Shown in pieces: positions 15,705-64,000 of a stretch of DNA of 64,000 bases. How positions within the stretch are numbered: the first letter of the stretch is position 1; each line of letters starts with the position of its first letter. Below the pieces are notes generated by a model, which saw nothing but the letters and a program-made list of their open reading frames with translations, had not been told where the DNA came from and ran no database searches. The position numbers were made by a program, and so were the translations under genes. The stretch lies in NCBI GenBank assembly GCA_964537315.1, contig CAZIAP010000002.1, forward strand, positions 107,237 through 171,236, written 5' to 3'. This DNA comes from an uncultured Gammaproteobacteria bacterium (GTDB lineage Bacteria; Patescibacteriota; Microgenomatia; Levybacterales; GWA1-39-11).

Positions 15705-17234
15705 TTATTGAGATATGGAAACAAAGATTGAGGTTTTAGTACACCCCACACAAGGAATACCAGAATGAAAATTTACAATGCTATGTGTAGCTTTTGGAAG
15801 TATTTCTTTTTCAATAAAATACAGAGTGCTTGATTTCTGTGTTGAATCTATAGGAATAATAAGTGTAGTGTTGGGTGTCTGAAGTACTTGGAGTAACTGG
15901 GACAAATTCAAATCAGACACTTTCGTTTTTTTATATGTTAATGAGTGGATCACGGGATGGGCAGAGTAAGTATGAGGAGTGGCAAGTAAATATACTTTAC
16001 CAGAAAGTGTAGACGCATACGCTCCAATACTTCCATTAGGTTCTATCCAGTTATAGTATGCGCGGTTATTAACAGAGTAATCGTAAAAATACAGTTTCAG
16101 GTTTAATAGTGCAATCGCACACACTACTACTACTTGAAAAATAAGTGCCTGCTTACTAGATTTCAAAAAACTTGTAAGGAATAGAGAAATTCCAATAAGT
16201 ACGAAAGGTATACAAAGAATAAGTCGGGTAGATAAAGGTGGAGACTCCGTGAATGAAACAAGAAATACAACTCCAAAAATGCAAAGTAATATAAAAAGTG
16301 TAATTTTATTTATAGTTCTTTTGATAATTCCAACAGTGCAATACACAATAAATAGTATAAAAACAGTCGATGAAAGAGGATCAAGCAACGGTGAGTTACC
16401 ATATTGATTACTGTTATCTTTCAAAGTAAAAAATCCAATAAAATTTTCTTTAAACTGCAGGAATAAAATTTTTATCATTGAGGTTGTTCCCCATTTATCA
16501 AAAAAAATTTGAGAATTAGAAAAAACTGTTACTTGTGCTTCACGTTCTAAAAAATTACTATTGGGTTGAATTATATAAATGACTAATGGAAAGCAAATAA
16601 TTGCAGCTCCTACAAAAAATGCTAAGTAGTGCTTCCATTTATCCTTGTTCCAGTAAAGCGTAAGAAAGAGAATTGTTATAGGAAGAATAATTTTTGCTCC
16701 GGTATAAGAGTAAAACGAAAGAGCTGCAAATGCTCCTGAAAAAATGGGGAAAATTAAGTTATCTTTATCCTTGATTTTATTTGCAATATACAATGAAGCA
16801 GTTATAAAAAACACTGCTTGAATATTAGGAAAATTTGTTCGGGAATATGCTAGGAGCACGTGAGAAGACCCCGCAAGAACCGCAGCAATGATACCTGTTC
16901 TTTGGTTAAAGAGATCTTTAACTAGAAGGTAAATAAATATAACAGAAAATGAGCCAAATATTACAGATTGCAACCTAATTATTCCTGGCTCTGTTCCAAA
17001 TAAATAAAGAAATATTGCTGTTAAAATATTTCCGATTACAGTAATGCTGTAGAAGGTTTCGAAAGGGTGCTGTGTTTGTTCAATTAACGAAATTGCAGCG
17101 GATGTCATTAATCCTTCATCGATATGTAGGGGTGCGGGATAACTATCAAGGAAAAGAGCTCGAGCTAGCGTAGAAAAAAATATTATTATAATGATTACGC
17201 TATTTCTCTTGAATTGTTTTTTTAAATTTTTCAC
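15705..17234 (-). CDS. GT-C-fold membrane glycosyltransferase (PMT/ArnT, GT39/GT83-like)
   Basis: N-terminal TM, then a DE motif in the first extracytoplasmic loop (PLHIDEGLMTSAA). About 11 TMs and a C-terminal soluble domain. Confidence 0.55.
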   Translation of the reverse strand: MKNLKKQFKRNSVIIIIIFFSTLARALFLDSYPAPLHIDEGLMTSAAISLIEQTQHPFETFYSITVIGNILTAIFLYLFGTEPGIIRLQSVIFGSFSVIFIYLLVKDLFNQRTGIIAAVLAGSSHVLLAYSRTNFPNIQAVFFITASLYIANKIKDKDNLIFPIFSGAFAALSFYSYTGAKIILPITILFLTLYWNKDKWKHYLAFFVGAAIICFPLVIYIIQPNSNFLEREAQVTVFSNSQIFFDKWGTTSMIKILFLQFKENFIGFFTLKDNSNQYGNSPLLDPLSSTVFILFIVYCTVGIIKRTINKITLFILLCIFGVVFLVSFTESPPLSTRLILCIPFVLIGISLFLTSFLKSSKQALIFQVVVVCAIALLNLKLYFYDYSVNNRAYYNWIEPNGSIGAYASTLSGKVYLLATPHTYSAHPVIHSLTYKKTKVSDLNLSQLLQVLQTPNTTLIIPIDSTQKSSTLYFIEKEILPKATHSIVNFHSGIPCVGCTKTSIFVSISQ

Positions 17235-43408: not shown

Positions 43409-43454
43409 AGTAAAATACTGGATACAGAATACGGAATACAGTATACTAAAAACT

Positions 43455-44051
43455 ATGCCTAAGCGAACAGTTATATTGATCTTAGTTTTAACTATCTTAA
43501 CAGGAGTTTTGGTGTTTTTAGCGCTTAAGAATGAGCAGAGAACAGCACCTCAACAAGCTGGTGAAGGAGAAAGGATAACCGAAGATACAGCGCTGCCCGA
43601 GAAAACAGCAACTCTAACATTTGATCCTCAAATAATGGAAGCTATACCTTCAACCGCGTCAGCAAACACTGTTGATGTAGTACTCAATGCCAATGAGCAT
43701 ACTATTGATAGTGTTCAGCTCGAGATAGTTTATGACCCTGCTGATCTTTCTAATGTAACAGTGAGTGCACCGGAGAATAACATATTCGGTGGTCCAGGTA
43801 GCTATACTGTCATACCAATGCCTTCAGATCCTGCACTTGGTAGAGTTTCATTTGCAATGGGTATCAGTACTCAAGCTCAAGCAGTACAAGGTGCTGGTCC
43901 TGTAGCACGAATTTCATTCACGGTGAACCCATCAACTACAAAAGATGTTACTCAAATCCAGATCATGGATCGATCTATGATAGTTGAGACAAATAGTCAT
44001 GAAAGTGTTCTTGCGCCGGTTGATCCACTTACTATTAACATTATTCGGTAA
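43455..44051 (+). CDS. Secreted cohesin-like domain protein
   Basis: Signal anchor. The beta-sandwich segment ATLTFDP...VDVVLNANEHTIDSVQLEIVYDPADLSNVTV is cohesin-like. Start chosen at the ATG at 43455 (MPKRTV...). Confidence 0.45.
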   Translation: MPKRTVILILVLTILTGVLVFLALKNEQRTAPQQAGEGERITEDTALPEKTATLTFDPQIMEAIPSTASANTVDVVLNANEHTIDSVQLEIVYDPADLSNVTVSAPENNIFGGPGSYTVIPMPSDPALGRVSFAMGISTQAQAVQGAGPVARISFTVNPSTTKDVTQIQIMDRSMIVETNSHESVLAPVDPLTINIIR

Positions 44052-44888: not shown

Positions 44889-44925
44889 TTGACAATATTT
44901 AGCACTCATGCTATCATTTTGCTAA
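44889..44925 (+). promoter_or_regulatory. hrcA promoter (TTGACA-N17-TATCAT) overlapping a CIRCE-like inverted repeat
   Basis: TTGACA 44889-94 and TATCAT 44912-17. TTAGCACTC (44899-907, exact CIRCE left arm)-N9-TTTTGCTAA (44917-25, 6/9 to GAGTGCTAA). An additional GAGTGC...GCACTC palindrome lies upstream. Confidence 0.55.
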
Positions 44926-48744: not shown

Positions 48745-51162
48745 ATGAAAAAATTTCTGCCCAAATTTGTACTTATCACATTTTTCTCTATTGCCTTTCT
48801 CCTTGTAGGTACTCTGACTAGCGTTAGTGCTCAGACATTAGACTCTCCGAATGATGTTAATAACGGTAACTGGGTTGAGGATCCAGAGGTGACATTTGTC
48901 GGAAAGGCAGCAAACAGAGCAAACGATTTTTTAAACTGGACATTGCAAAATTATAACTGGCTATGTGTAGAAAAAGCCGGTGATGCCTGTGTAAATACAT
49001 ATGACAATAATCCCTTAGTTGAGTTTTGGGAAATGGTGCGTAATATCATATATGCTTTACTTCTCTTATTTGTTTTGGGAACTGCGGGTGTAATTATAGT
49101 TACGCGAGGTCAAAACATCACTATTATGCGTTTTGTGCCTAGATTTATCGTAATTATTTTACTTGTTACATTTTCATTTGCGTTAGTTCAGTTCTTATAT
49201 GTTGTAGTTGATATTGTCCAAGGATTTTTCCTTCGACCTGATGGACCAGAAGGACCGCTAATTTCATCAGCTGATCTGCTTTATATAGCTTTTCCTTATG
49301 AATTTACTGGCTTTAGGGCACTAGGATCTGATAATGACGAATCCGCATTTATCTCATTGTTGCTTGTAAAACTAACCGCAATTACTTATTATGTGATGAC
49401 AGGTGTGTTATTAGTGCGAAAAATCATCCTCTGGTTTTTCCTTATCGTGTCACCTATATTTCCTCTGCTTATCTTTTACCGCCCTGTTCGCAATACCGCA
49501 AAGATTTGGGTTGGAGAGTTCTTCCGTTGGTTGTTGTACGCGCCTCTCTTTGCACTTTTTCTACACGGTTTGGTGGTTATGTGGAGAGATAAAATTCCAC
49601 TCGCATTTGATTTTAACTCACAGGGTAGTGTTGCAGGCACAGACGTACTCTATCCTACAGCAGTAAACATTTTAATCGGTGGACCAGGTCAACAGATAGG
49701 GATCAATAACTCAGTTAATCTTCCTGATACTTTCGCACTATACGTAGTTGCTTTAATCATGCTTTGGGTGGTTATCTTGCTACCATTTTTACTACTTCGA
49801 ATTTTCTTAGATTACTTTAATTCCATCTCATTTAGCGGATTTATGTCTAAGCAGGTCAACAAAAACTTTGCTTTCTTAAACCCACGTGGTCCATCGGGTG
49901 GTCCAACTCCTCCGCCTCCTCCGGGTAAGGTGTTTCCAACCGGCATGGCGCGTCAGTTGCCATTTTTGAATAAAGCCGCAAAAACAATTGAAGTTGGTAG
50001 GCCGGTCAGTACCAGTAGTACGAGAGATATTAGATCATCCGTGCAGTCTAATGTTAGCCAACCTGTAGCAGTAAGAGAGGTTAACGAAGTTCTCAAGTCT
50101 GTCAATATAAGTGTTCCTAAGATGCAGGACGTTGTGAAGTATGAGAGAGCGTTATTAAGTAATAATATTACTGAACGTCAAACAGTCACACAGTTCCGTG
50201 AGACATTAGAAAAAATTGCAAATCCAGCACAGGTTACTTCAGTTACAGAGCGTCAGCAGTTTAGCCAGATACACGAGAAGCTAACTACCCAGCAGGAGAG
50301 AGGAAACCCGTTGGCAACATCAATTCTTAAGGCTGCTGGAAAAACAACTGTAAGTAGTACAATTGATATTAATCAGCAGCTTCGAATGTTGCTCCAGCAG
50401 CTAGCGAGCCCATCTACTGTAAACCCACGTGTACGTCAAAAGATGAGTACACTTAAAACACAGCTTACAGGTGCTCAACATAGTGGAAATAATTTAGCAA
50501 CAACTGTGCTGACTACTGCTGAGAAAATCAGTAAAAAAGAGCTAACTAAAGAGCAGGAAGATGCAGCGATTGAGGAGATCAAGACAAAGATCCAGGAGCA
50601 AAAACAGACAAGCGATCCAGTTACTCAGTCTGTTGTATCTACGATGCAACAAGCACAGGCTGTAACAGAAACTCAATCATTACCTGTTATAAATAGAGTC
50701 CAGCAAGTAAGCATTGAAGATTATGAGGAGGTACGAAAGATGTGGGTAGAGAATTATGAGACATTAGAACCTCCTAAGACGCTTGAAGGCAAGCAACTGG
50801 AGAGAGAGGAATGGGTTAGAAGTGACGTGCAGAAGATTAATGAAGCAGTCACTCTGCTTTCATCTGTTGAGCCGCAAAAAGTTAATGAAGGTATGGAGAT
50901 GGTCGGAAGTATTTTGCCGTTCCTACTCATGGGAGGTTTCTCTAAATCTGAGGTTGTTGCCTACTTGAAAGCGAAGCTTGCAGCTGCCAAGTCTATACTG
51001 GAAGCAGCCGAAAAGCAGAAAGACGATGAAGATTCGATGATATATCGCGAGACCAAGAAAGAAGAGGCAAAAGAAATGAGCATAAAACATGCTATAGAGC
51101 TTCCGAGTGAAAAAGAATCGCCTAAAAATTCGGAAGACGACGAGACTAAGACTCAACCGTGA
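48745..51162 (+). CDS. Large polytopic membrane protein with Sec signal peptide, ~6 TMs, poly-Pro hinge and ~400-aa coiled/Q-rich cytoplasmic tail (VirB6/TrbL-like architecture)
   Basis: Signal peptide ...TSVSA|QT. The TM block spans roughly aa 95-330. GGPTPPPPPGK follows. A long hydrophilic C-terminus carries degenerate internal repeats. Confidence 0.4.
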   Translation: MKKFLPKFVLITFFSIAFLLVGTLTSVSAQTLDSPNDVNNGNWVEDPEVTFVGKAANRANDFLNWTLQNYNWLCVEKAGDACVNTYDNNPLVEFWEMVRNIIYALLLLFVLGTAGVIIVTRGQNITIMRFVPRFIVIILLVTFSFALVQFLYVVVDIVQGFFLRPDGPEGPLISSADLLYIAFPYEFTGFRALGSDNDESAFISLLLVKLTAITYYVMTGVLLVRKIILWFFLIVSPIFPLLIFYRPVRNTAKIWVGEFFRWLLYAPLFALFLHGLVVMWRDKIPLAFDFNSQGSVAGTDVLYPTAVNILIGGPGQQIGINNSVNLPDTFALYVVALIMLWVVILLPFLLLRIFLDYFNSISFSGFMSKQVNKNFAFLNPRGPSGGPTPPPPPGKVFPTGMARQLPFLNKAAKTIEVGRPVSTSSTRDIRSSVQSNVSQPVAVREVNEVLKSVNISVPKMQDVVKYERALLSNNITERQTVTQFRETLEKIANPAQVTSVTERQQFSQIHEKLTTQQERGNPLATSILKAAGKTTVSSTIDINQQLRMLLQQLASPSTVNPRVRQKMSTLKTQLTGAQHSGNNLATTVLTTAEKISKKELTKEQEDAAIEEIKTKIQEQKQTSDPVTQSVVSTMQQAQAVTETQSLPVINRVQQVSIEDYEEVRKMWVENYETLEPPKTLEGKQLEREEWVRSDVQKINEAVTLLSSVEPQKVNEGMEMVGSILPFLLMGGFSKSEVVAYLKAKLAAAKSILEAAEKQKDDEDSMIYRETKKEEAKEMSIKHAIELPSEKESPKNSEDDETKTQP

Positions 51163-51223: not shown

Positions 51224-54200
51224 ATGTTTGGAAATCTATTTAATCAGAAAAAAGATGGAACGGAAGAACAGGTTCCTCCTACACCTGTGCAGGTGCCACA
51301 GCAGGGAGTAAATCCTGTTGTTGACCCTTCTCAGCCGCAGATGACACAACAACCTCCACAAGTAGTGCAGACAGGTAGCGTAGAACAGACGACTACAGGT
51401 ATGGGAATTCAGGCAGGCCTGCCCGCAATGCAAAGCAACGCGTTTCAGGCGGGACCTGTTGTGTTTAGTCAGACTGACACAGTAACAAATACTCAAAATG
51501 TACCAATTCAACCTCAGCAACCGGGGCAAAATCCACAAGCCGTGTCTCAGCCAACTATGCCAGATCAAACAGTACCAGGTCAGCCTATTGCTCCTGATAA
51601 TCCAGGGATGGGAGCAGAGAAAATGCAAAACGTATCGGCTCTTTCTCGTTTGGATGCCAGAGCAACGCAGGTATTACACCATGCGCAAGAAGAAACCAGG
51701 AGGATTCAGCAAGCACTTATAGAACCTGACCAGATACTTTATGGCTTGATCTATGACAGTGGGGTATACAAGCTCCTTGAACAGTTCTCAATTGATGCAT
51801 CAAAAATTGCAAAAGATATACAAGGAAAATCCCAACAGGGTACATTTACAGGACAGCCAACTCTAAGCCCGCAGTCTCAAGAAATTTTTGATACTGCTTT
51901 TAATTCGGTAAAAGCGCGACAGGCAAGTTTTATAACTCCTGAGGATATTCTACTAGCCCTTTTCAATGCAGCAGCAATGGCTGAGTTTTTCAGAACTCAG
52001 GGAGTTGATAAAGGAAAAGTAGAAGAAAAGCTTGCAAAAAACACTAGTTTTGTGGGAGATGGAAAGAGATCAGTTCTGGATAAATACAGTATAGATCTTA
52101 CACAAAATGCAAGAGACGGCCTATTAGATCCAGTTACTGGACGTGACGTTGAGATAGAAAGACTTGTACACATTTTGCTTCGTAGAACAAAAAATAATCC
52201 GATAATTATAGGTGAAGCAGGTGTAGGAAAAACAGCTATAGTCGAAGCTATTGCACAAAAAATTGTAGATGGACAGATTCCTGAAGATCTAAAAAACAAA
52301 AAAATTATTCAGCTAGACCTTGCTTCGATGATTGCAGGTGCTGCTCGTAGAGGTGAGTTTGAAGAGCGCCTACGTAGTATTATTCAGGAGGTGCAAGCTT
52401 CTGGACAGATAATTTTATTCATCGATGAAATACATACTCTAGTTGGAGCAGGCGATTCGGGAGGCGCGCTGGATGCATCAAATATTATTAAACCATATCT
52501 TTCTCGTGGGCAGCTTCAGCTAATTGGTACAACCACAACTGCTGAGTTCAGGAAGTATTTTGAAAAAGACAAAGCATTTGAAAGAAGATTCCAACCGATT
52601 ATGGTTCAAGAACCGGACGAAGAGGTTGCGGTAGAGATGTTAAATGTTATCAAACCTAAATATGAAAAGTATCACAACGTTGTGATGACGCCTGAGTCTA
52701 TCGAAGCTGCTGTTGTGCTATCTAAAAAATATATCGGAGAAAGATTTCTACCCGATAAAGGTGTGGATTTGCTTGATGAAGCAGCTGCAGAGGTAAAGCT
52801 TGCTAAAGCAGAAGGGAAACGGCAGGATAATAATATTGTTAAAACTGATATAGAAAAAGTAGTTTCAAGTTGGACGGGGATTCCGATCACACGACTTACA
52901 GAAGACGAAAGTGAAAAGTTGCTGCACTTAGAAGATCATATTCATAAACGCCTCATTGATCAGGAGGAAGCTGTTGCAGCGGTCTCAGAGGCAGTACGTA
53001 GAGGGCGAATCGGTCTCGCTTCAGCAAACAGGCCGATTGCTTCATTTATATTTTTGGGTCCTACAGGTGTCGGTAAAACGGAGCTTGCCAAAACCCTTGC
53101 TGAGATTTTGTTTGGCAGGGATGACGCAACTATCCGACTTGATATGTCTGAGTATATGGAAAAGCATGAGGTTGCAAAACTTATCGGTGCTCCTCCGGGA
53201 TATGTAGGTTATGAAGAAGGCGGACAATTAACAGAAGCTGTAAGATCAAAACCATACTCAATTGTGCTCCTTGATGAGGTTGAGAAGGCACATCCTGATG
53301 TGTTTAATATTCTACTGCAAATTTTGGAAGATGGAAGACTCACCGATAATAAAGGTAATACAATTTCATTTAAAAATACTATTATTATTGCCACTTCAAA
53401 TCTTGGAAGCCACATAATCCAAAAGTTTTTACTTGAACGGGCAAAAAATTCTGGAAAATCTACCGAGAATATCGAAAGTTCTACAACTGAGAAGAATCCA
53501 GATGAATCCAAAGGTAAAGAAAATACTGAAAAACAGGCTAACTTAGAAAATGACGAGAAGAATAATGATGTCTCAACAGAGGGTGCACAATCTGGTAAGG
53601 ATACAACTGGATCAAAGTCATATTCAGAACAACGAGTAAATCTACAGCTTGGAGGAAATACTGATAAGAAAACCGATGGTGAGTTCGAAGAGCTGACAAA
53701 ATTACTGCAAGAAGAGCTGCATAAATTCTTCCGTCCTGAATTGTTGAATAGATTTGATGATCTTGTAGTATTCAAGCCGCTTGCACAGCGTGATATGATG
53801 CAGATTGCAAAGCTCGGTATCGGTAAAACTCAAAAACTCTTAAAAGAGCAAGGATTTGACATCCAAATTACGGATCTAGCACTGGATCAGCTGGCAAAAG
53901 AAGGGTACGATCCTGTATATGGTGCTCGACCTTTGAGAAGATTAATTCAAAACTCAATTGAAAACGCAATCGCTATTGCATTAATTAGTAAACAGTTTGT
54001 TGCTGGTGACACCATTATTATTGATTACGACACTACACAGCAAAAGTTTGCTTTCTCAAAGGGAGCTTCTCAAAACCAGTCAGGACAGCCACAGGGAGAG
54101 GGTTCTCAACCACCTACTGGGCCAGGTCAGCCTGTCAATACCCAAGGTACAACAAATCAACAAACTGGATTACCCCAGAACTCTCCTCAAGCTCAGATAC

Positions 54201-54463
54201 CAAATCAGAACACAGGTCAGGTAGTTAATCAAAATCCTGCAACACAGCAACCTGTTCAGCCAACTGCTCCACAAGAAGTGTACTATGGTGTTCCTCCTCA
54301 GAATCAGCAAGTAAATTCTCAGCCAGTTCAACCAAATCAACCTATTGGACAAGAAAATGGAACAGGTATAGTGCAGCCACCGCAAACACCTCCACAGTAT
54401 CCGCAGACTAACGGTGCGGGTCCGGCAGGAAATGGCGCAACCATGAATACGTCTGTATCCTAG
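51224..54463 (+). CDS. ClpC/ClpA-like double-ring AAA+ ATPase with Q/P-rich N- and C-terminal extensions and a low-complexity insert in D2
   Basis: Clp_N-like repeat. D1 Walker A IIIGEAGVGKTAIVEAIA, Walker B ILFIDEIHTLVGAG. D2 Walker A FIFLGPTGVGKTELAKTLAE, Walker B IVLLDEVEKAHPDV. The short inter-ring linker means no ClpB-type M-domain. A roughly 100-aa K/E/S/T-rich insert at 53433-53735 replaces the usual ClpP-binding IG[FL] loop. Confidence 0.8.
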   Translation: MFGNLFNQKKDGTEEQVPPTPVQVPQQGVNPVVDPSQPQMTQQPPQVVQTGSVEQTTTGMGIQAGLPAMQSNAFQAGPVVFSQTDTVTNTQNVPIQPQQPGQNPQAVSQPTMPDQTVPGQPIAPDNPGMGAEKMQNVSALSRLDARATQVLHHAQEETRRIQQALIEPDQILYGLIYDSGVYKLLEQFSIDASKIAKDIQGKSQQGTFTGQPTLSPQSQEIFDTAFNSVKARQASFITPEDILLALFNAAAMAEFFRTQGVDKGKVEEKLAKNTSFVGDGKRSVLDKYSIDLTQNARDGLLDPVTGRDVEIERLVHILLRRTKNNPIIIGEAGVGKTAIVEAIAQKIVDGQIPEDLKNKKIIQLDLASMIAGAARRGEFEERLRSIIQEVQASGQIILFIDEIHTLVGAGDSGGALDASNIIKPYLSRGQLQLIGTTTTAEFRKYFEKDKAFERRFQPIMVQEPDEEVAVEMLNVIKPKYEKYHNVVMTPESIEAAVVLSKKYIGERFLPDKGVDLLDEAAAEVKLAKAEGKRQDNNIVKTDIEKVVSSWTGIPITRLTEDESEKLLHLEDHIHKRLIDQEEAVAAVSEAVRRGRIGLASANRPIASFIFLGPTGVGKTELAKTLAEILFGRDDATIRLDMSEYMEKHEVAKLIGAPPGYVGYEEGGQLTEAVRSKPYSIVLLDEVEKAHPDVFNILLQILEDGRLTDNKGNTISFKNTIIIATSNLGSHIIQKFLLERAKNSGKSTENIESSTTEKNPDESKGKENTEKQANLENDEKNNDVSTEGAQSGKDTTGSKSYSEQRVNLQLGGNTDKKTDGEFEELTKLLQEELHKFFRPELLNRFDDLVVFKPLAQRDMMQIAKLGIGKTQKLLKEQGFDIQITDLALDQLAKEGYDPVYGARPLRRLIQNSIENAIAIALISKQFVAGDTIIIDYDTTQQKFAFSKGASQNQSGQPQGEGSQPPTGPGQPVNTQGTTNQQTGLPQNSPQAQIPNQNTGQVVNQNPATQQPVQPTAPQEVYYGVPPQNQQVNSQPVQPNQPIGQENGTGIVQPPQTPPQYPQTNGAGPAGNGATMNTSVS

Positions 54464-54464
54464 T

Positions 54465-56408
54465 ATGGAAAATCCGCAGTCTTCAAGTTTTACATCACTG
54501 TTTCAATCTCGTAGGTTTCTAATTGCAGCAGGATTTATTTTACTTCTTGTGCTTGTTGGAGTAGGAATATTTTTTATCTTAAGCAGCAAGCCTCCACTCG
54601 AGCCTATTCCTGAAGGCTCTGTGTACACTCCCGACGAAGTAACTGTACAGTTTGCGCAAGGTTATACACCTGCTCCGCAGGGAGAGAATGAAAATTGGGA
54701 TAGGTTGTATGCAAAGCTCCAAGAACTGGGCGTTCAGTCATACTCTAAAGTGTTCGATTCAAATGATCCTGATTTATCAAGATATTATAAGCTTAAGCTT
54801 TCTTCTGATGCTGAAGTTGCCACAATCCGTGAAGAGTTATATAAGCTTGATGAAATAAAAGCTTCTGAACCTGAGTATATCCTCAGTACTCAGTTGAGTG
54901 CTAATGATGCAGAATATTCTGGTATGTGGGGACTGAAAAAAATTGATATTGAAAAAGCTTGGGATGTAACCAGAGGCTCAAACTCTGTGAAAGTCGCAGT
55001 GGTAGATACGGGAATTGACTATAATCACCCTGATTTCGCAGGGAGATCAATTATTAAGGGTAAGGACGTATCAACTTGCGACAGCACATACCAAGAGCTT
55101 CTTGCTTCAAACGGTCAATGTACGAAACCTAAACAACCTGATAATGACCCATTAGATAGTAATAACGGACACGGCACTCACGTTGCGGGAACAATAGGCG
55201 CTGCGACTAATAATGGAATAGGAGTCTCTGGAGTAAATTGGAACGTAACACTAATTGCCGTAAAAACGATGGGAGAAGGTGGCGCAGGGGGTATGTCTGA
55301 AATTGCAAATGGATTGGTAGATGCAGTGGATAGAGGAGCTGATGTGGTAAATATGAGTCTTGGTGGAGAGGGAACATGTACATCTCAGATGCAACAAGCG
55401 ATAAATTATGCCAGAAATAAAGGAGCTGCTATAGTAGTCGCTGCCGGAAACGGTGACAGAAATGGTAATCCTATTGATGCCTCTCGGGTTACTCCAGCGA
55501 GCTGTACAGGTGTAATTGTGGTTGGAGCAACGGGACCAAATGATGAACGCTCAAGTTATTCAAACTACGGAACACGGGTAGATCTAGCGGCGCCTGGAGG
55601 AAATGAACCAAGAGGAACATCATCATGCACAAAATCTAATTGCATAACTTCAACATGGCCAGGAAGACAGTACAGATCGGTTCAAGGTACATCTATGGCA
55701 GCGCCTCACGTAGCAGGTGTCGCAGCTCTTCTGCTGGCACAAAATGGCAGCCTAACACCGGATGACATTAAAAGATGTCTTATTAACAGTGGAAACCCAA
55801 TAAGTACAGACAGACCAATTGGTGGAAAAAGACTTAATGCATATAGTGCGCTTAACGGCTGTATAGCAAGTGCGAATCAGCCGACGACTCCTCCTGCAAA
55901 TCCGCCTACTGCTACTCCAACAGATACGCAAGCGCAAACACCAGCCATTGAACCATCAGAGTATTATCTAAAAGGTTTTACATACTCGGATGCTAATAAT
56001 AATCTTACCTTTGATTCAGGAGAGACCATGGTTGCGGGAGTCATATTGAAGTTGACTGATGAATCAAACGTAAACACTAATATTCCTACTGGAGCAGATG
56101 GTAAGTTCGAATTTAGAAATTTAAAACCTGGTTCTTATCTATTAACCGCAACAGTTGGTACTCGAGATGTGATGGAGTATAGAATAGGACTTGATTTAAA
56201 TATGAGCAGCCAAAACATACCAATTCCGATTCCCTCAGTAGAACCGTCTGATCCCGATAATCCTTCACAAGGGGAGAATAGGGTAATTATAACAGGCTCA
56301 CCTACTCCAACTCCTCGTCCGTTACATACATGTGTAGAGAAGACTACTCAGCAACGTGTTAATAACCGTGTCTTGCAGCTTAAGTACCTCGACTGCACTC
56401 CTATATAA
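54465..56408 (+). CDS. Membrane-anchored subtilisin-like serine protease (S8) with C-terminal Cna-B/CarboxypepD_reg-like domain
   Basis: N-terminal TM. Catalytic triad motifs VAVVDTGIDYNHPDF (Asp), HGTHVAGTIGA (His) and GTSMAAPHVAGVAALL (Ser). The C-terminal segment DGKFEFRNLKPGSYLLTA is a prealbumin-like fold. Confidence 0.85.
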   Translation: MENPQSSSFTSLFQSRRFLIAAGFILLLVLVGVGIFFILSSKPPLEPIPEGSVYTPDEVTVQFAQGYTPAPQGENENWDRLYAKLQELGVQSYSKVFDSNDPDLSRYYKLKLSSDAEVATIREELYKLDEIKASEPEYILSTQLSANDAEYSGMWGLKKIDIEKAWDVTRGSNSVKVAVVDTGIDYNHPDFAGRSIIKGKDVSTCDSTYQELLASNGQCTKPKQPDNDPLDSNNGHGTHVAGTIGAATNNGIGVSGVNWNVTLIAVKTMGEGGAGGMSEIANGLVDAVDRGADVVNMSLGGEGTCTSQMQQAINYARNKGAAIVVAAGNGDRNGNPIDASRVTPASCTGVIVVGATGPNDERSSYSNYGTRVDLAAPGGNEPRGTSSCTKSNCITSTWPGRQYRSVQGTSMAAPHVAGVAALLLAQNGSLTPDDIKRCLINSGNPISTDRPIGGKRLNAYSALNGCIASANQPTTPPANPPTATPTDTQAQTPAIEPSEYYLKGFTYSDANNNLTFDSGETMVAGVILKLTDESNVNTNIPTGADGKFEFRNLKPGSYLLTATVGTRDVMEYRIGLDLNMSSQNIPIPIPSVEPSDPDNPSQGENRVIITGSPTPTPRPLHTCVEKTTQQRVNNRVLQLKYLDCTPI

Positions 56409-57405: not shown

Positions 57406-57732
57406 ATGCCTGCCCTGCTGTACCCTATTTTTCTATTGAAATTTTGGTATATCGATGCGACAAAGTTTTTTTTGCACGTTTACCGTGAACTATTTGTTTA
57501 TTGTTTGTCTCTTTTTTCTCTACCATTACTCATTCGTTCATTCTTCAGACCGGTTAAAAACGAGTACAGAAAGGACTTAGTATTGTTTTCTATTTTTTTC
57601 GGTATGGGGGTAAAATCTGTACTTATCAGTATATCTATCGCAATTATGCTGTTTCTATTACTTGTAGGCGTAATATTACTTATTAGTTTTTGGGCATTTC
57701 CTTACTTTGTCTATCAGCTATTAAGCTTATGA
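57406..57732 (+). CDS. Small 3-TM membrane protein
   Basis: 108 aa and hydrophobic. It overlaps the start of the following AAA+ gene, so its reality is uncertain. Confidence 0.3.
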   Translation: MPALLYPIFLLKFWYIDATKFFLHVYRELFVYCLSLFSLPLLIRSFFRPVKNEYRKDLVLFSIFFGMGVKSVLISISIAIMLFLLLVGVILLISFWAFPYFVYQLLSL

Positions 57733-60122
57733 ACGATTATAAAAACCTGTTTACATATTATTCTTTTTTTAATACTGGCTGGGTGGTATTGGTAAGATAT
57801 GTCATTTTTTTCGCGTGTTTACTGCTTCTTTTTCTATTTATCCAGGATCTAGATAAGTCTAAAATGATCTTAGCAGGATTCATGCTTTTTTTAGCAAATG
57901 AGCTATTTATACATCTGAAAATAAATAAAGTTCGTCCTCAAAAGACAGTTTCACAGGTTGCAGTCGATACGCTTGAGTTAGCAGTTTTTTTCCGTCCGCT
58001 TTTATTTCTTAGACATTCTAAGAATGGAATAGATCTTGCTCGTAAGCTGGTAAGACATCCCGCAAATACATATTTACTAGGAAAAATTACTGGTTCACTG
58101 GCGATACCAGAAGCAGATGTAGAAATAACAGCAATACTTCAAAAAGCTTATGTATTAGTTAATAGTGTAAAAGGACAGTATATCTCTCAACTCGATTTAT
58201 TTGCTGCTTATATTCTGCTCGCGGAAAACTCTGTGCACATGCTTGAGAATGCGGATATGAACGAACAGGACTTTATAAACATATACTACTGGGCACGTAA
58301 TTCCTATAAGGTTGATGAAAATAATAAGCCATTTAAGATGTCATTTTATGGAGATGGTTCTTTTGATTTTTTTGTTTACGGTTGGAGTACAGAGTTAAAA
58401 AAATATGCAAGAAGTGTTAATTCAAGTGTGCTTTCTCGCAAGCATATTCCTCGTGTTATCGGGCGAGGTGCAGAATACGAACAATTGATTGTTGCACTAA
58501 GTAAACCGCAAGCTCGCAATATACTGCTTATCGGTGAACCCGGTACCGGAAAAACTTCACTTGTCGAGTTTTTCTCGTACAATTCTCATCTTGGTAAAGT
58601 CCCTGCTCAACTATCTAATATGCAAGTATATGAAATATTCATTGATAGGTTACTAGCTGGAGTATCTGATAGAGGAGAGCTTGAACATCGTTTAGTTACA
58701 CTGATCGATGAAGCGGGTCATGCCGGAAACATCATATTATTTATACAGAACATTGAAAATATTTTTGGTGCGGGAGGATTTGATTTTGATATCTCAGGAG
58801 TACTATATGATTACCTTAAAAACGGAATGTTAACTGTTATCGGTACAACAACAAACTCCGCTTATAATACTCACATTGCAAATCGTGAAGCTACAGCTGC
58901 GCTTTTTACAGCAATCGATCTTCCTGAGCCGGATGAGGATACTACACTTTACATGTTATTTGAAAAAGTAGGAGATATAGAGCGTCAGTACGGTGTTGAT
59001 ATTACCTACTCTGCAGTAAAAACACTAACCACTTTATCAGGAAGTTATCTGACAGATAGAGCTTTGCCTGGAAAGGCGATTACTGTTTTAGAAGATATAG
59101 CTACCTCCCAGCAGATAAAAGGAAAACATCCTATTATTACAAAAGAAGTTGTGGAAGCGCATCTATCTGCGAAGACTCGCATTATTATTGGTAATCCAAC
59201 TAAAGAAGAAAAAGAACTACTGCTTAATCTTGAGGATAAACTGCACGAACGTATTGTAAGTCAGGATAGAGCAGTACAGGTAGTGGCAAATGCCATGCGT
59301 CGAGTTAGAAGTGGACTTAAATCAGGACATAGGCCAATAGCTGTTTTTCTATTTCTTGGACAGACTGGCGTGGGAAAAACGGAGACAGCAAAAGCTTTGG
59401 CAGAGGTTTATTTTGGAAGCGATGAGTCTATGATCAGGCTAGATATGAGTGAGTTTCAGAATCAGGATTCAATAGGAAAGTTACTAGGGGAGCAGGTTGG
59501 TCAAGAATACGCGGAAAATGCATTTACTGAGCAAGTTGCTAAAAATCCTTTTTCTCTCATCCTTTTAGATGAGTTTGAAAAAGCCCACCCGCAAATTTTA
59601 AATTTATTTCTTCAGGTTTTTGAGGATGGTAGGCTAACGGATAATAAAGGCAGAACTGTATCATTTCAAAACTCCATTATCATAGCTACATCCAACGCTG
59701 GTAGTGAGTATATACGTCAACAAGCTGGTCAGATTACCGACATTGATGTATTTACAAAACAGTTAATGGATATGCTGATGCGATCAGGACAGTTTAAGCC
59801 GGAGTTGCTTAACCGCTTTGATGAAACAGTTGTGTTTACTCCGCTTACCAAAGAAAATTTGCTCTCAGTTGCCAGCTTACTGCTTCAGAAAGCACTTGCT
59901 CCTCTGCAGGACAAGCAGATTAGCATAACATTTGATCAGGCTATTTTGAACAAAATCGTTTCAGAAAGCTATGATGAATATTTTGGAGCGCGGAACATTC
60001 GAAGATATATTACATCAACGGTTTCGGGATATATATCAGACCTCGTATTAAAAGATCAGCTTAAAAAAGGTTCACAGGCGGTACTTACAGTTGATTCATC
60101 GAATCAAATAACGATAAGATAG
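57690..60122 (+). CDS. Membrane-anchored Clp/Hsp100-like double AAA+ ATPase with degenerate D1 Walker B
   Basis: The N-terminal 90 aa form 2-3 TM helices in place of a Clp_N domain. D1 Walker A LIGEPGTGKTSLVEF. D1 Walker B reads ILFIQNIENIFGAG, i.e. QN where DE is expected (Q353/N354, nt 58746-58751). D2 Walker A FLFLGQTGVGKTETAKALAE and Walker B LILLDEFEKAHPQI are canonical. No IG[FL] loop. Confidence 0.75.
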   Translation: MGISLLCLSAIKLMNDYKNLFTYYSFFNTGWVVLVRYVIFFACLLLLFLFIQDLDKSKMILAGFMLFLANELFIHLKINKVRPQKTVSQVAVDTLELAVFFRPLLFLRHSKNGIDLARKLVRHPANTYLLGKITGSLAIPEADVEITAILQKAYVLVNSVKGQYISQLDLFAAYILLAENSVHMLENADMNEQDFINIYYWARNSYKVDENNKPFKMSFYGDGSFDFFVYGWSTELKKYARSVNSSVLSRKHIPRVIGRGAEYEQLIVALSKPQARNILLIGEPGTGKTSLVEFFSYNSHLGKVPAQLSNMQVYEIFIDRLLAGVSDRGELEHRLVTLIDEAGHAGNIILFIQNIENIFGAGGFDFDISGVLYDYLKNGMLTVIGTTTNSAYNTHIANREATAALFTAIDLPEPDEDTTLYMLFEKVGDIERQYGVDITYSAVKTLTTLSGSYLTDRALPGKAITVLEDIATSQQIKGKHPIITKEVVEAHLSAKTRIIIGNPTKEEKELLLNLEDKLHERIVSQDRAVQVVANAMRRVRSGLKSGHRPIAVFLFLGQTGVGKTETAKALAEVYFGSDESMIRLDMSEFQNQDSIGKLLGEQVGQEYAENAFTEQVAKNPFSLILLDEFEKAHPQILNLFLQVFEDGRLTDNKGRTVSFQNSIIIATSNAGSEYIRQQAGQITDIDVFTKQLMDMLMRSGQFKPELLNRFDETVVFTPLTKENLLSVASLLLQKALAPLQDKQISITFDQAILNKIVSESYDEYFGARNIRRYITSTVSGYISDLVLKDQLKKGSQAVLTVDSSNQITIR

Positions 60123-60128
60123 TATGAT

Positions 60129-61136
60129 ATGAAATTTGCATGCTTTGAAATTGATTCAGAAGAAAAGAAGTTTTTATCAAAGTTTTTAAAAGGACAAGAG
60201 CTTGTATACTTTGATCACCCACTTCGAGAAAGTAATTTAGACTCGATTGCTGATGTACAAGGGCTCATAATTTTTATTTACTCAAAGATTGATGAAGCAG
60301 TACTTGAAAAATTACCACAGTTAAAATTTATTACTACCATGTCTACAGGCTTCGATCATATTGATCTTGAAGCATGTGAAAGACGTAATATTGTTGTATC
60401 AAATGTCCCAACCTACGGAGAAGTGTCTGTGGCAGAGCATACATTCGCTTTAATCTTGGCTGTTTCAAGGCGAATTACTGAGTCATACAGTAGGGTAAAG
60501 AGTGGATACTTTTCTCCGGATGGTCTTACTGGATTTGACTTAAACGGAAAAACGCTCGGTGTAATTGGAGTGGGAACAATAGGGTCCCATGTAATTAAAA
60601 TTGCCAAAGGGTTTGGAATGAATGTGATTGCGTACAAACGATCACCTGATCCTGAACTTGAGAAAAAGCTTGATTTTAGGATTAAGGATTTAGAAACGGT
60701 ATTGCAGGAATCAGACATAATCAGTTTAAATCTTCCGTATAATCAGGAGACTCATCACCTTATTGATGATGAGAAATTTTATATGATGAAGAAAGGCGCT
60801 GTTATTATTAACACTGCACGTGGTGCTATTATTGATACCAAAGCAATGCTTGCAGCTCTTGAGCGTGGAGATCTGGGAGGAGCTGGTCTTGATGTTTGCG
60901 AAGGAGAACCTGTGTTAAATGAAGAGAGACAGCTACTGTCAAAACAGTTTAACAGTGAGGAGATGATGTACGTTATGAATGAACATATGCTACTATATTA
61001 TCCTAATGTTGTGATTACTCCTCATAATGCTTTCAATAGCCAAGAGTCGCTAAAAATTATTCTTAATACGACTGTGGAAAATGTTAACGCATTTAATAAT
61101 AACCAACCAAAGAATGTGGTTGGTGCGAAAAATTAA
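60129..61136 (+). CDS. D-isomer-specific 2-hydroxyacid dehydrogenase (D-lactate/phosphoglycerate dehydrogenase family)
   Basis: NAD-binding GVIGVGTIGSHVIKIAKGFGMNVIAY. Catalytic Arg/Glu/His pattern (NTARGAIID...E...HNAF). Confidence 0.8.
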   Translation: MKFACFEIDSEEKKFLSKFLKGQELVYFDHPLRESNLDSIADVQGLIIFIYSKIDEAVLEKLPQLKFITTMSTGFDHIDLEACERRNIVVSNVPTYGEVSVAEHTFALILAVSRRITESYSRVKSGYFSPDGLTGFDLNGKTLGVIGVGTIGSHVIKIAKGFGMNVIAYKRSPDPELEKKLDFRIKDLETVLQESDIISLNLPYNQETHHLIDDEKFYMMKKGAVIINTARGAIIDTKAMLAALERGDLGGAGLDVCEGEPVLNEERQLLSKQFNSEEMMYVMNEHMLLYYPNVVITPHNAFNSQESLKIILNTTVENVNAFNNNQPKNVVGAKN

Positions 61137-61167: not shown

Positions 61168-61737
61168 TTATTGTAGTTCCGCAAATACAAGTAGCCTTCT
61201 CAGATCAGTTCCAACTGGTGTGCAAGTTTGTAGAATCAAGTCCGCGTTGGGTTTTTTCAGATATTGTACTTCACTTGGCCAGACCTCTTTAATTTCAATT
61301 ACTTTATAAGTATATTTTTTATCTCCGTTTGTGATGGTGATTTCATCTTTAATCTGGAGCTGGTGAAGTTTAAAAAAAGCAGTGTTGTATTGTGTAATAT
61401 TCCAAGGATAATCTGATGAGTGAGCAAAAAGGTAAGTTCCTTTTTGACCCGGAAGAGCAGTACCTTTAGCGTGTGCTATGCCGTGCCTCAATGAATCTTT
61501 GTATTCTGACTCATTCCAAGGATCAACATTTTTAACGATGGGCGCAGCAGCTTTAATCTTAGGAATTTCAATCCAATAAGATTCCGAATCTTGAGCTACA
61601 GCGACATTTTGCAACGGTGTAGGTGGAGTAAAAAAATATATACGAATAATAGGAGTGTATATGTAAAGCAGTAAAATAACTGCAGATATCATAAGTGCTG
61701 TTCCTAGTTTTTGGTGAAATTTTTTTGGTTGTATCAT
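61168..61737 (-). CDS. Sortase-family transpeptidase
   Basis: N-terminal TM. Active-site TLxTC-type motif LILQTCTP with Arg downstream (DLRRLL), and upstream His (LFAHSSD). 189 aa. Confidence 0.65.
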   Translation of the reverse strand: MIQPKKFHQKLGTALMISAVILLLYIYTPIIRIYFFTPPTPLQNVAVAQDSESYWIEIPKIKAAAPIVKNVDPWNESEYKDSLRHGIAHAKGTALPGQKGTYLFAHSSDYPWNITQYNTAFFKLHQLQIKDEITITNGDKKYTYKVIEIKEVWPSEVQYLKKPNADLILQTCTPVGTDLRRLLVFAELQ

Positions 61738-61788: not shown

Positions 61789-62934
61789 CTATCGTGCTAA
61801 TCCCGGTGCACAGCCGGAACGGAATCGCAGATACCATCCTGCAAAGAACATTATTAAGCTTGCGATAGTTGCCCATAGTAAGAAGAGGCTTCCTGTAACT
61901 GGCAGTACTTCACCGATAGCTGCTCCAAGAATGTCACCATTTGGTGCTCCGTTACCACCGATATGACCATTACCATTACTAACTTGGGTGGGAGGGGTGG
62001 TTGGTTTTTCATGTTTCTCTGGTTTTTCGGGTTTAGGTTTTTCAGGACAGTCACAATCAGCTTTTAAATGGTTAATATTTATATCTTTATTAACAACTGT
62101 GGCAACGGACTTAATGTCACCTGTGTGAATTTTTATATCTCCTTCATTATCGTTTGCGACATTGCCTCCAGTATTTAAGTTGTGTTTAATATCATTGAAT
62201 ATGTTTGCAAGATTGGTGCTGTTAAAAGTTTTAGATTCATCTACCTTAAATAGTAGTTTATTAAATGATCCGTACCCATTACCAAAAATTTTTAATATCA
62301 TCTCATTTGATGATTTGCATGAGCCGTCACAGTTAACTCCGTTTAAATTGATGAATGAGTTGTTGATTCTCTTATTCTCAATATTAGTTTCAGCAGTTAT
62401 ATGTCCGGATCTAATTGATACATCACCTTTGTTCCAGTTTGCTGAGTTGTTTCCTGTGTTAGCGTTTACAATCACATTATTAGATATGAATGCGTAGTTA
62501 TCTTGATTAAATGTTGTATTGTTAGAGGCGTCAGCAGTGATAGAATTATTAGATTTGCTGCTATTTCCACTGATTTGTGCTGTACCGCCTGTTAAGCCTC
62601 CGCTAGGAATATGCGCAATGTTTTGGTTAATGCCACTATTTGTGATGTTTGTCTCTGTTTTTATGTCTCCGGTTGAGATATTGGTATCCCCTGAGTTGTC
62701 AGTAGCAGTATTATCTCCGGTATTAGTATTTACCTCGACATTGTTTTCAATATTTGCAGTATTGTTTTGTTGAAAATTAGAAGTAGATTCAGAGGTGATA
62801 TTAATAGAGTTATTAGATCCTTGATCATTGTCCGTGATAGAAAAATTAGAATCGTCAGCATATACCGGAATTACAGATCCAAATACTGATACAAGTACTA
62901 TTCCGAATGTTATAAAGGTTTTTGTGTTGTACAT
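61789..62934 (-). CDS. LPXTG-anchored surface protein built from Asn/Thr/Gly-rich ~33-aa repeats
   Basis: Signal peptide. Repeats of the form N-x-N-T-G-x-N-x-A-x-x-N-x-G-D-x-x-I-x-T-G-D-I. PEKPKPEKPEKHEKP stalk. C-terminal LPVTG (61885-61899), then a hydrophobic helix and a basic tail RFRSG. Confidence 0.7.
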   Translation of the reverse strand: MYNTKTFITFGIVLVSVFGSVIPVYADDSNFSITDNDQGSNNSINITSESTSNFQQNNTANIENNVEVNTNTGDNTATDNSGDTNISTGDIKTETNITNSGINQNIAHIPSGGLTGGTAQISGNSSKSNNSITADASNNTTFNQDNYAFISNNVIVNANTGNNSANWNKGDVSIRSGHITAETNIENKRINNSFINLNGVNCDGSCKSSNEMILKIFGNGYGSFNKLLFKVDESKTFNSTNLANIFNDIKHNLNTGGNVANDNEGDIKIHTGDIKSVATVVNKDININHLKADCDCPEKPKPEKPEKHEKPTTPPTQVSNGNGHIGGNGAPNGDILGAAIGEVLPVTGSLFLLWATIASLIMFFAGWYLRFRSGCAPGLAR

Positions 62935-63016: not shown

Positions 63017-64000
63017 TTATATTTGGACAGGACGCCTTATTAATCTTTTTGTAACTTTAGTTGCAATTAATAGTATTGGCAGAATAACTAATAACCAGGC
63101 TAGGTTAATTGTTAGTTTTTGCGTGTCCGCTACTATATCCTGGACTGATGATGATCCTTTTACAGCACCAGCAACTCTTGTTTGTATATCAGATACTCCT
63201 TCCCGTAGGTTGTTACCTGCTGAGTAAGAAAGCCTAGTATTGCCGTTGGTATTAGTAGTAGATGCAGCAAGCGAAGTTGTAGTTGTAGAGGCATCAGATT
63301 CTTGAGTACCTTGACTTTGTTCATTAACATTCTTTTCGCTACTACCATGCTGCTGTCCTCCTCCTAGATTCGTAATCGAATTATTATTGTTTTCGGAATT
63401 TGTAGCAGTAGTATTTTGTACATTTTCTTTCTTCTGTCCAGGGGTTATAAAGTCTCCCATCCAGCTACCGAAAACATTAACAAATGTAACAACAAGCTTT
63501 CCGTCTCCTATGATATTGTTATTTACGAAGTTTATGAGATTTACTATTACGTTTGCGTCACCTGTTGTAATGCTGGTGTTACCCCTGTTATCATTTGCCT
63601 GATTCCCTCCTGTATTCGCACTGAGGTTAAGTGTGTTATTTATTTGTGCATTGTTTGTTTGTTCAGTTGTACTATTGTTAGATTGCGATACTGAAGACGT
63701 GTTAGTTGAGTCTTCTCCATTATTACTATTCCTTGCGACAATGTCTCCATTTTCATTCACTACAAACTCAGTTCCGCTTGAGCCAGCCATATTACTTCCT
63801 TCCGGTGCTCCAAGAATTCTTCCAATCCAGTTGCCTGCTTCATTAACAATGACTAGCCACCAAGTTTCACCTGAGTCGATATTAGAGTTTGCGATATTCA
63901 GCACATTGACATCCACATTGGCGTCTCCTGTAGTAATTGAGGAGTTACCACGATTGTCACTGGTTGTGTTATTACCAGTTGTAGCATCGATTACAATATC
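63017..64000 (-). CDS. Second repeat-family surface protein, 5' end beyond window; C-terminal TM + basic tail but no LPXTG
   Basis: Same N/T/G repeat unit (TTGNNTTSDNRGNSSITTGDANV). The frame is open to the window edge: the ORF-track 'M' at 63916 is an internal GTG. The C-terminus reads ...LAWLLVILPILLIATKVTKRLIRRPVQI. Confidence 0.55.
   Translation of the reverse strand, partial: DIVIDATTGNNTTSDNRGNSSITTGDANVDVNVLNIANSNIDSGETWWLVIVNEAGNWIGRILGAPEGSNMAGSSGTEFVVNENGDIVARNSNNGEDSTNTSSVSQSNNSTTEQTNNAQINNTLNLSANTGGNQANDNRGNTSITTGDANVIVNLINFVNNNIIGDGKLVVTFVNVFGSWMGDFITPGQKKENVQNTTATNSENNNNSITNLGGGQQHGSSEKNVNEQSQGTQESDASTTTTSLAASTTNTNGNTRLSYSAGNNLREGVSDIQTRVAGAVKGSSSVQDIVADTQKLTINLAWLLVILPILLIATKVTKRLIRRPVQI

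Follow-up and report, generated by a model that had tools for sequence, protein, structure and literature searches.

Can an Hsp100 machine still work when its body is held at a membrane and one of its two rings has lost the residues that hydrolyse ATP? In the textbook picture, Hsp100/Clp proteins are soluble and thread their substrate, gripping it with tyrosine pore loops while each of the two rings hydrolyses ATP. The question is raised by a gene near the right-hand end of a 64,000-nucleotide stretch of contig CAZIAP010000002.1 (assembly GCA_964537315.1), referred to below as the window. The gene encodes a Clp-like ATPase whose membrane anchor, dead first ring (D1), non-standard substrate loops and constant small membrane partner suggest a so far unstudied kind of membrane-bound machine for protein remodelling. 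A first-pass annotation, made from the letters of the window alone, had described an AAA+ protein of the Hsp100/Clp type, with two rings and an anchor in the membrane at its N-terminus, and Pfam, structure profiles and the hydrophobic N-terminus all agree with that description.

Architecture of the Clp-like ATPase

The tandem AAA+ modules of class I Clp/Hsp100 proteins are both present, by Pfam and by fold match. Pfam recognises AAA in D1 (1e-17), AAA_lid_9 (2.5e-8), AAA_2 in the second ring, D2 (7e-50), and ClpB_D2-small (1.8e-15). The NCBIfam models for ClpB, ClpA, ClpK, ClpV and ClpG match strongly, all of them far under their curated cut-offs (score against cut-off: 458/1232 for ClpB TIGR03346, 425/993 for ClpA TIGR02639 and 385/885 for ClpV TIGR03345). 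Database searches returned 120 hits in all, and the family counts given below refer to 74 full-length relatives (39-79% identity). A profile of these 74 relatives matched structures of ClpC, ClpB and ClpA with E values of 1e-136 to 1e-173, the best match being ClpC at 1e-173. Identity to canonical ClpC-type proteins is 32-35% over ~70% of the query, and the family is clearly, on these alignments, a derivative of the known Clp/Hsp100 superfamily.

An AlphaFold2 model derived from the alignment of the 74 sequences (mean predicted local distance difference test, pLDDT, of 84) places helices at residues 3-14, 17-36 and 41-65, an eight-helix domain at 79-192 and then the two AAA+ modules. Its D1-D2 body overlays the ClpC, ClpC1 and ClpB protomers of hexamer structures with template modelling (TM) scores of 0.85-0.88 at 3.4-4 Å. 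The Walker A motifs of D1 and D2 are spaced 275 residues apart, which is ClpA-like and much shorter than in ClpB, and the protein therefore lacks an M domain. No coiled-coil M domain was found in the D1 small subdomain by this spacing, by alignment with ClpC or by alignment with the NCBIfam ClpA model, which runs as one stretch; the ClpB model aligns in two separate stretches.

The gene most probably begins at ATG 57729. The first-pass annotation had placed it at 57690-60122, and this extent holds for the open reading frame (ORF), which runs on the + strand from a TTG to the stop over 810 residues. Its start does not hold: TTG 57690 lies 39 nucleotides too far upstream and was rejected. The preferred ATG shares the sequence ATGA with the TGA stop of the 108-residue ORF upstream; the database protein P0001, of 797 residues, is 100% identical to the product read from this ATG; and in the four orthologous loci read (L001, L002, L004 and L005) the ORFs open exactly at the equivalent ATG, with no in-frame start upstream. 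Because of this overlap, the length of P0001 and the ortholog starts, the first 13 residues of the 810-residue reading are very probably not part of the protein. Residue numbers below follow the 797-residue form and are those of the first-pass annotation minus 13.

57729..60122, + strand, stop codon included: most likely coding sequence of the membrane-anchored Clp-like ATPase (797 residues; Pfam, P0001, ortholog starts)
57690..57728, + strand: the 13 extra codons of the TTG start, inside the 3' end of the upstream ORF and probably untranslated in this frame

Ahead of the two rings, the corrected protein carries four elements:

57777..57842, + strand: hydrophobic helix 1, residues 17-38, GWVVLVRYVIFFACLLLLFLFI, holding the Kyte-Doolittle 19-mer maximum of 2.85 (AlphaFold2 helix 17-36)
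57858..57917, + strand: hydrophobic helix 2, residues 44-63, SKMILAGFMLFLANELFIHL (AlphaFold2 helix 41-65), followed by the basic stretch KINKVRPQK
57963..58304, + strand: diverged Clp_N-like eight-helix domain, residues 79-192 (AlphaFold2 fold, Foldseek, hhalign, ClpA alignment)
58350..58385, + strand: motif GDGSFDFFVYGW of aromatic and glycine residues, specific to the family and lying between the N domain and D1 (residues 208-219), with W219 invariant and G208, G210 and G218 invariant or near-invariant

The two hydrophobic helices are separated by a five-residue loop, and the second is more amphipathic than the first. A strongly hydrophobic 19-mer (Kyte-Doolittle) lies within the first 65 residues in 73 of the 74 relatives, and elsewhere in almost none. 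Each helix contains a conserved charge, R23 in helix 1 (70/74) and E58 in helix 2 (74/74). Since a basic stretch follows helix 2, the positive-inside rule would put the AAA+ body in the cytoplasm; the same rule, and the need of an ATPase for the cytoplasm, would make the two helices a hairpin with both ends on the cytoplasmic side. Hydropathy, the AlphaFold2 helices and positive-inside reasoning are mutually consistent, and that the hairpin inserts in the membrane with both ends inside is a well-supported inference from sequence and model. Of the two to three transmembrane helices proposed earlier, the hairpin accounts for two, and the third was the out-of-frame tail of the upstream ORF.

The Clp_N domain had been thought to be replaced by about 90 residues. 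A Clp_N-like domain instead follows the hairpin. Modelled alone, region 66-215 gives eight helices with a pLDDT of 91 and a predicted TM score of 0.85. Among the top 50 Foldseek matches in the PDB, almost all are N domains of ClpC, ClpC1, ClpC2, ClpD, ClpA, ClpB, ClpV, Hsp104 or HSP101; these matches are weak (E 0.1-1, TM 0.4-0.5). Comparison of the family region with canonical Clp_N by hhalign aligned repeat 2 (P = 1e-3), and the HMMER profile alignment to ClpA begins at ClpA residue 78, which is the second Clp_N repeat. Pfam Clp_N has no match in the window protein and none in the N domains of 32 members, even at E <= 10. We read the eight-helix domain, on this alignment and model evidence, as a strongly diverged, retained Clp_N. 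When the N-terminal 215 residues were searched against 1.84 billion representatives, only 54 proteins were returned, all of ~780-830 residues or fragments, so the N-terminal module is rare and tied to this architecture.

One silenced ring and one motor ring

The two rings differ sharply in their catalytic residues, and the features that define D1 are as follows.

58533..58556, + strand: D1 Walker A GEPGTGKT, residues 269-276, intact (Lys in 68/74 relatives)
58662..58673, + strand: D1 pore-loop position, VSDR against canonical xKYR; the tyrosine is lost (aromatic in 1/74 relatives)
58734..58760, + strand: degenerate D1 Walker B ILFIQNIEN, with Q340 and N341 (58746-58751) in place of D and E
58821..58823, + strand: N365 at the canonical D1 arginine-finger position (ARGEL to KNGML), a column without Arg among its commonest residues

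The first-pass annotation had noticed the glutamine and asparagine at the Walker B acidic positions, as Q353 and N354, next to a normal D1 P-loop; both observations are correct. It had also named conservation in orthologs as the check to make, and the pair proves to be a family trait. At the first position, canonically Asp, the 74 relatives have Q in 52, P in 19 and E, R and S in one each; at the second, canonically Glu, they have N in 67, D in three, E in two and T and Y in one each. DE occurs at the D1 Walker B in none of the 74, nor in P0001-P0083. A sequencing error or strain-specific mutation behind QN was rejected, QN/PN being conserved family-wide.

Other parts of the D1 site have changed as well. 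The arginine-finger column reads N in 32 relatives, S in 24, D in six, G in three and T and K in two each; these six commonest residues cover 69/74, and Arg is not among them. The ERRF motif is lost, and the sensor-1 Thr/Ser is kept in 73/74. E343 and N344 are conserved just after Walker B, and the flanking motif IQNIENIFG is nearly invariant. Classic AAA proteins often carry an Asp at i+3 (DExD), where E343 sits; E343 is probably not a surrogate catalytic base. The D1 large subdomain has a mean pairwise identity of 50%, against 64% for D2. Because D1 is conserved to this degree, yet has lost both its Walker B pair and its arginine finger, the ring appears to be under selection and unable to hydrolyse ATP canonically.

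D1 thus looks like a pseudo-ATPase or structural ring, which agrees with the earlier view that it is no normal hydrolytic module, the Walker B pair and the arginine finger being lost family-wide. The proposal that QN is a natural counterpart of the engineered E-to-Q trap fares less well: the substitution extends to the Mg-coordinating Asp (Q in 52 relatives, P in 19), and the arginine finger and ERRF are gone. An ATP-locked D1 is possible on these residues and is not implied by them.

The corresponding features of D2 are largely intact, with the exception of the pore loop.

59358..59381, + strand: D2 Walker A GQTGVGKT, residues 544-551 (K550 in 74/74 relatives)
59490..59525, + strand: D2 pore-loop region, EQVGQEYAENAF in place of PPGYVGYEEGGQ, variable across the family
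59556..59585, + strand: D2 Walker B LILLDEFEKA, with D614 and E615 (kept in 72-74/74 relatives)
59694-59696, + strand: D2 sensor 1, N656 (kept in 72-74/74)
59814-59816, + strand: D2 arginine finger, R696 (kept in 72-74/74)
59991-59993, + strand: D2 sensor 2, R755 (kept in 72-74/74)

With K550, D614, E615, N656, R696 and R755 all kept in 72-74 of the 74 relatives, D2 is, judged by its residues, the only motor. The earlier description of D2 as canonical is right for the catalytic residues and for Walker A and B, and does not extend to the pore loop, where GYVG is absent both in alignment with ClpC and in the relatives. Across the family the loop measures 2-12 residues and is nearly deleted in some members. 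A tyrosine stands at a shifted GxxY position in 33/74 relatives, the window protein included, and 30 have no aromatic at all. The ClpP-docking tripeptide of ClpA, ClpC and ClpE (IGF/IGL/VGF) was found in no family member, and the D2 segment aligned to ClpC 'RNKYVGFNVQ' is short. The database label of these proteins, 'ATP-dependent Clp protease ATP-binding subunit', is probably wrong in implying coupling to ClpP.

The small membrane partner, its neighbourhood and the wider family

The ATPase gene is flanked by two genes that recur across related loci.

57406..57732, + strand: 108-residue polytopic membrane protein, the conserved partner gene, directly upstream (motif LFSLPL..R.FF.P.KNEYR)
60129..61136, + strand: D-isomer 2-hydroxyacid dehydrogenase, 6 nucleotides downstream (Pfam 2-Hacid_dh and 2-Hacid_dh_C)

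Neighbourhood counts are out of 37 loci, the window and 36 related loci found with a linker-to-D1 alignment whose pattern includes IQNIEN, so that this locus set is biased to QN members. The 108-residue ORF lies directly upstream on the same strand in 37/37 (tblastn): the small membrane ORF and the ATPase gene are an obligate pair. The four-nucleotide overlap between them is found in the window and in three of the four orthologous loci read in detail, and the two are probably translationally coupled. The dehydrogenase is the downstream neighbour in 31/37 loci; it is probably in the same operon, and a functional link is not implied.

Neither Pfam, NCBIfam nor PADLOC matched the 108-residue protein, and its homologues are likewise without Pfam or NCBIfam match. 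There are ~140 of them, 104-118 residues long, and their records call them only hypothetical proteins, from Levybacteria or Roizmanbacteria. They share the motifs LP..LKFWY and LFSLPL..T.F.P.KNEYR.GL..FS, and at least 90% have a Glu in the last hydrophobic stretch, where the window copy has Gly.

Upstream of the pair, the loci show two arrangements. In 16/37, the window included, the pair follows a block of TrbL-like, ClpC-like, S8 peptidase and DnaJ genes, and in 21/37 (L001, L004, L005, L009 and 17 more) it lies next to a divergent type IV pilus operon. The latter comprises a PilB-like T2SSE, a PilC-like T2SSF and N_methyl pilins, often with a response regulator and an Hpt protein in between. 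Neither the window nor any of the 36 related loci showed type VI secretion genes, which does not fit membership of ClpV/TssH. A role in anti-phage defence was considered and rejected, as the PADLOC models DolB and PDC-M37B match D2 only (110-281 of 375), the small partner has no match and no defence genes lie nearby.

Every locus with a phylum-level name belongs to Levybacteria (class Microgenomatia, candidate phyla radiation, CPR). Many GTDB representative contigs with the family are titled 'uncultured Gammaproteobacteria bacterium' (third-party annotation, TPA, assemblies); since their gene content and synteny are Levybacteria-like, these titles look like placeholder mislabels.

The membrane-anchored clade extends beyond the close relatives. 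Twelve more distant hits (P0084-P0090, P0092, P0094, P0096, P0100 and P0107; 789-945 residues) have N-terminal hydrophobic helices and a degenerate D1, and lack GYVG. Their D1 Walker B pairs are PD, PN, AE, ND, DD and DQ, with DE only in P0084, and several have a recognisable Pfam Clp_N. By eye, the second helix ends in a similar motif in both groups, LFLADRLLH in the distant relatives and LFLANELFIH in the window protein. Homologues of the small partner are encoded immediately upstream of P0094, P0107 and P0087, in L041 (E 1e-9 with the family hidden Markov model), L042 (6e-8) and L044 (3e-14 to the L041 protein). Across the 120 hits and the ClpC-like protein encoded near the ATPase gene in the window, a hydrophobic N-terminus, a non-DE D1 and the absence of GYVG occur together in 87 proteins, and 20 canonical proteins have none of the three. 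A search with the N-terminal 307 residues of P0094 gave two matches only.

Five of these distant relatives (P0085-P0089; L044, 6001-8838) start with a CxxC...CxxC zinc ribbon, which precedes the hydrophobic helices and is reminiscent of ClpX or DnaJ zinc modules. In P0096 (796 residues; L043, 1906-4296), with no small ORF upstream, the N-terminus FFAWHY...LLKNLFAPYRR...hydrophobic resembles the small partner by eye. We do not claim a fusion, the match being weak (E 5e-5 over the hydrophobic part only, and 0.06-0.09 against a divergent partner).

The earlier statement that no family of this kind has been described holds as far as the searchable literature goes. Nothing relevant was found there on membrane-anchored Hsp100 proteins or on Clp proteins of CPR, Patescibacteria or Levybacteria, and a 2026 preprint on a CPR pilus system mentions neither Clp nor AAA.

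In the window itself, the pair lies in a chaperone cluster. A CIRCE-like inverted repeat, TTAGCACTC-N9-TTTTGCTAA, lies at 44899-44925 (+) with three mismatches, a match of a kind seen in 3/100 shuffles. The best sigma-70-like site of the region, TTGACA-17-TATCAT, overlaps it just upstream of hrcA, the two together spanning 44889-44925 (+). The genes that follow are, in order and all on the + strand, hrcA, grpE, dnaK, the TrbL-like gene, the ClpC-like gene, the S8 peptidase gene, dnaJ, the small ORF, the ATPase gene and the dehydrogenase gene, with short gaps and no convincing terminator along this run. Because hrcA, grpE, dnaK and dnaJ cluster on one strand here, a role in proteostasis would fit in this genome.

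The TrbL-like and S8 genes are insertions in the hrcA-grpE-dnaK...dnaJ cluster. The former encodes an 805-residue membrane protein with a weak TrbL/VirB6 match (48745-51162, +), and the latter an S8 subtilase (54465-56408, +) whose best NCBIfam match is the type VII secretion mycosin model, under its cut-off. The ClpC-like ATPase between dnaK and dnaJ (51224-54463, +; 1079 residues) has long Q/P-rich low-complexity extensions at both termini, a low-complexity insert of ~90 residues in D2 where the ClpP loop would be, and no M domain. Its D1 pore loop is ARR against KYR, and both of its Walker B motifs and GYVGY are intact.

Several other genes of the window lie apart from the pair:

61168-61737, - strand: sortase
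61789-62934, - strand: repeat protein rich in Asn, with an LPVTG sorting signal at its C-terminus
63017-63916, - strand: Asn/Thr-rich membrane-anchored protein
41465-44051, + strand: adjacent, overlapping genes for a dockerin-containing protein of 647 residues and a cohesin-containing protein of 221 residues, unusual for a CPR genome
30442-32094: GroEL gene
15705-20600, - strand: three tandem paralogues of PMT_2-type (dolichyl-phosphate-mannose-like) glycosyltransferases
11910-14042: DUF2298 membrane protein

Pfam gave no match on the two repeat proteins near the sortase (61789-62934 and 63017-63916).

Proposed function and comparison with known systems

We favour, with somewhat better than even confidence, a remodelling ATPase that is tethered to the membrane, driven by D2 and independent of ClpP, and that acts together with the small partner, a function inferred from sequence and gene order. 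The hairpin, with both of its ends cytoplasmic, would keep a hexamer with its D1 face to the membrane. D1 would serve as a structural or assembly ring, possibly stabilised by nucleotide, by analogy with D2 of NSF and D1 of Pex1/Pex6, and ATP hydrolysis in D2 would remodel, hold or extract proteins at the cytoplasmic face of the membrane. The small polytopic membrane protein would complete a two-gene module as an adaptor, a regulator or a client. With neither a ClpP-docking loop nor an M domain, the machine is expected to need no ClpP and to do without the coupling to DnaK that ClpB makes through its M domain. Of all the steps, processive threading is the least certain, since conservation is lacking in the D2 pore loop.

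Several points weigh against this reading. What the protein does is deduced from its residues and gene neighbours, the hexameric state and nucleotide binding by D1 are assumed from homology, and membrane insertion is predicted from hydropathy and AlphaFold2 helices. The D2 loop is variable and lacks its tyrosine in 41/74 relatives, and the D1 pore loop has an aromatic in 1/74, which argues against canonical substrate threading. In the 21/37 loci of the second arrangement the module does not lie beside chaperone genes, and the heat-shock context thus does not hold throughout the family. No functional clue comes from the conserved downstream gene, a metabolic dehydrogenase.

The state of the pore loops bears directly on how the ATPase might act. 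The first-pass annotation had offered a membrane protein extractor; with an aromatic in D1 in 1/74 and a D2 loop of 2-12 residues with Tyr in 33/74, classical threading is no safe inference. The same losses make a non-threading switch or regulator, comparable to Torsin, a serious alternative, possible in our view though on the unlikely side. In such a switch the D2 cycle would move the N domain and hairpin to gate, assemble or disassemble the partner or its complex. The partner is obligate, the charged residues in the hydrophobic helices (R23 and E58, and the Glu of at least 90% of partners) suggest intramembrane contacts, and Torsin, which lacks pore-loop aromatics and depends on the membrane proteins LAP1/LULL1, offers a precedent. 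However, the window protein and its closer relatives keep the D2-loop tyrosine (GxxY), the whole ClpC-like protomer fold is retained down to its ring-forming elements and the D2 arginine finger, and the window's own partner has Gly for the conserved Glu.

Gene order separates the remodelling ATPase from another proposal of the first-pass annotation, in which the protein is a substrate-holding subunit or partner of the ClpC-like ATPase encoded 3.3 kb upstream, through mixed hexamers or client hand-over. In the window and 15 other loci the two genes share a strand in the chaperone cluster, neither protein has an M domain or an evident ClpP loop, and other AAA+ systems, Pex1/Pex6 for example, are known to form mixed rings that include catalytically dead subunits. 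This partnership is nonetheless improbable. Adjacency to ClpC is absent in 21/37 loci, the small ORF in none of the 37, and the ClpC block of L018 and L031 runs on the opposite strand. A D1 without arginine finger could not activate a neighbouring ClpC D1 site, and the low identity to canonical ClpC-type proteins given above also speaks against it. As for the idea of an artefact or a decaying gene, with QN as a strain mutation or sequencing error or the hydrophobic stretch as the product of a mis-called start, the TTG start was indeed misplaced. The conservation data effectively refute it: QN/PN persists in relatives down to 39% identity, IQNIENIFG hardly varies, the ORF is unbroken, purifying selection acts on D1 (50% identity), and the hairpin is present with the corrected start in 73/74 relatives.

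The remodelling ATPase with its partner would represent a conserved natural lineage in which an Hsp100 protein has been bolted to the membrane, had one ring silenced, let its pore loops drift and acquired a dedicated small membrane partner. This would amount to an experiment of nature on how far the Hsp100 mechanism can be pared down. It would also indicate that CPR bacteria, about whose cell biology almost nothing is known, have an activity in membrane proteostasis or membrane remodelling. A broader view, which we put forward as speculation and consider unlikely, is that of a widespread, unrecognised CPR class of two-component membrane machines, each made of a small polytopic protein and a hairpin-anchored Hsp100 derivative with a pseudo-ATPase D1 and no gripping tyrosines. 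These would act as non-threading, D2-powered switches controlling a membrane complex, a bacterial counterpart of Torsin/LAP1 evolved independently from ClpC.

Among known systems, ClpC and ClpA are the closest in build. They share with the window protein the two AAA+ modules with AAA_lid_9 and D2-small, a domain that in the window protein is putatively Clp_N-like and, in ClpA, the absence of a long M domain, and the best structural matches are ClpC protomers. Unlike them, the window protein has a membrane hairpin and a D1 without Walker B acids, arginine finger or KYR loop, and it lacks the D2 GYVG, the IGF/VGF ClpP-docking loop and any UVR or half M domain. With ClpB/Hsp104 it shares independence of ClpP, as suggested by the missing docking loop, a very similar D2 and, in this genome, a gene near dnaK, dnaJ and grpE; it differs in being membrane-anchored, in its inactive D1, in pore tyrosines that are not conserved and in lacking the coiled-coil M domain, the DnaK-coupling element.

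FtsH, Msp1/ATAD1 and membrane-bound LonB are single-ring, membrane-anchored AAA+ extractors of other clades with aromatic pore loops, FtsH and LonB also carrying a protease domain. An N-terminal transmembrane anchor that holds an AAA+ ring under the membrane is common to them and, by prediction, to the window protein, and membrane-protein quality control would be the functional analogy. The window protein instead belongs to the Hsp100 clade, has two rings, carries no protease and lacks a conserved aromatic in its pore loops; in place of the FtsH architecture of a single AAA module and an M41 zinc peptidase, Pfam finds a double Clp-type module and no peptidase domain. A silent ring beside a motor ring is known from NSF, Pex1/Pex6 and p97-type proteins, soluble double rings of the classic AAA clade in which one ring is silent and serves assembly or stability and the other is the motor. 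The window protein shares this division and differs in clade, and we know of no such double ring with one inactive ring that is of Hsp100 origin.

Plant SMAX1/SMXL/D53 proteins, eukaryotic nuclear co-repressors derived from Hsp100 with degenerate ATPase modules and not membrane-bound, are a precedent for the re-use of Hsp100 scaffolds with degenerate nucleotide-binding modules; PF23569 (NBD_SMAX1) itself has no Pfam match in the window protein. Torsin is a eukaryotic, single-module, ClpB-D2-like protein of the endoplasmic reticulum lumen, with no aromatic pore loop and with its arginine finger supplied by the cofactor LAP1/LULL1. Membrane association, the lack of a conserved aromatic pore loop and a membrane-protein partner are common to both, whereas the window protein has an invariant D2 arginine finger of its own and a D1 ring that appears dead.

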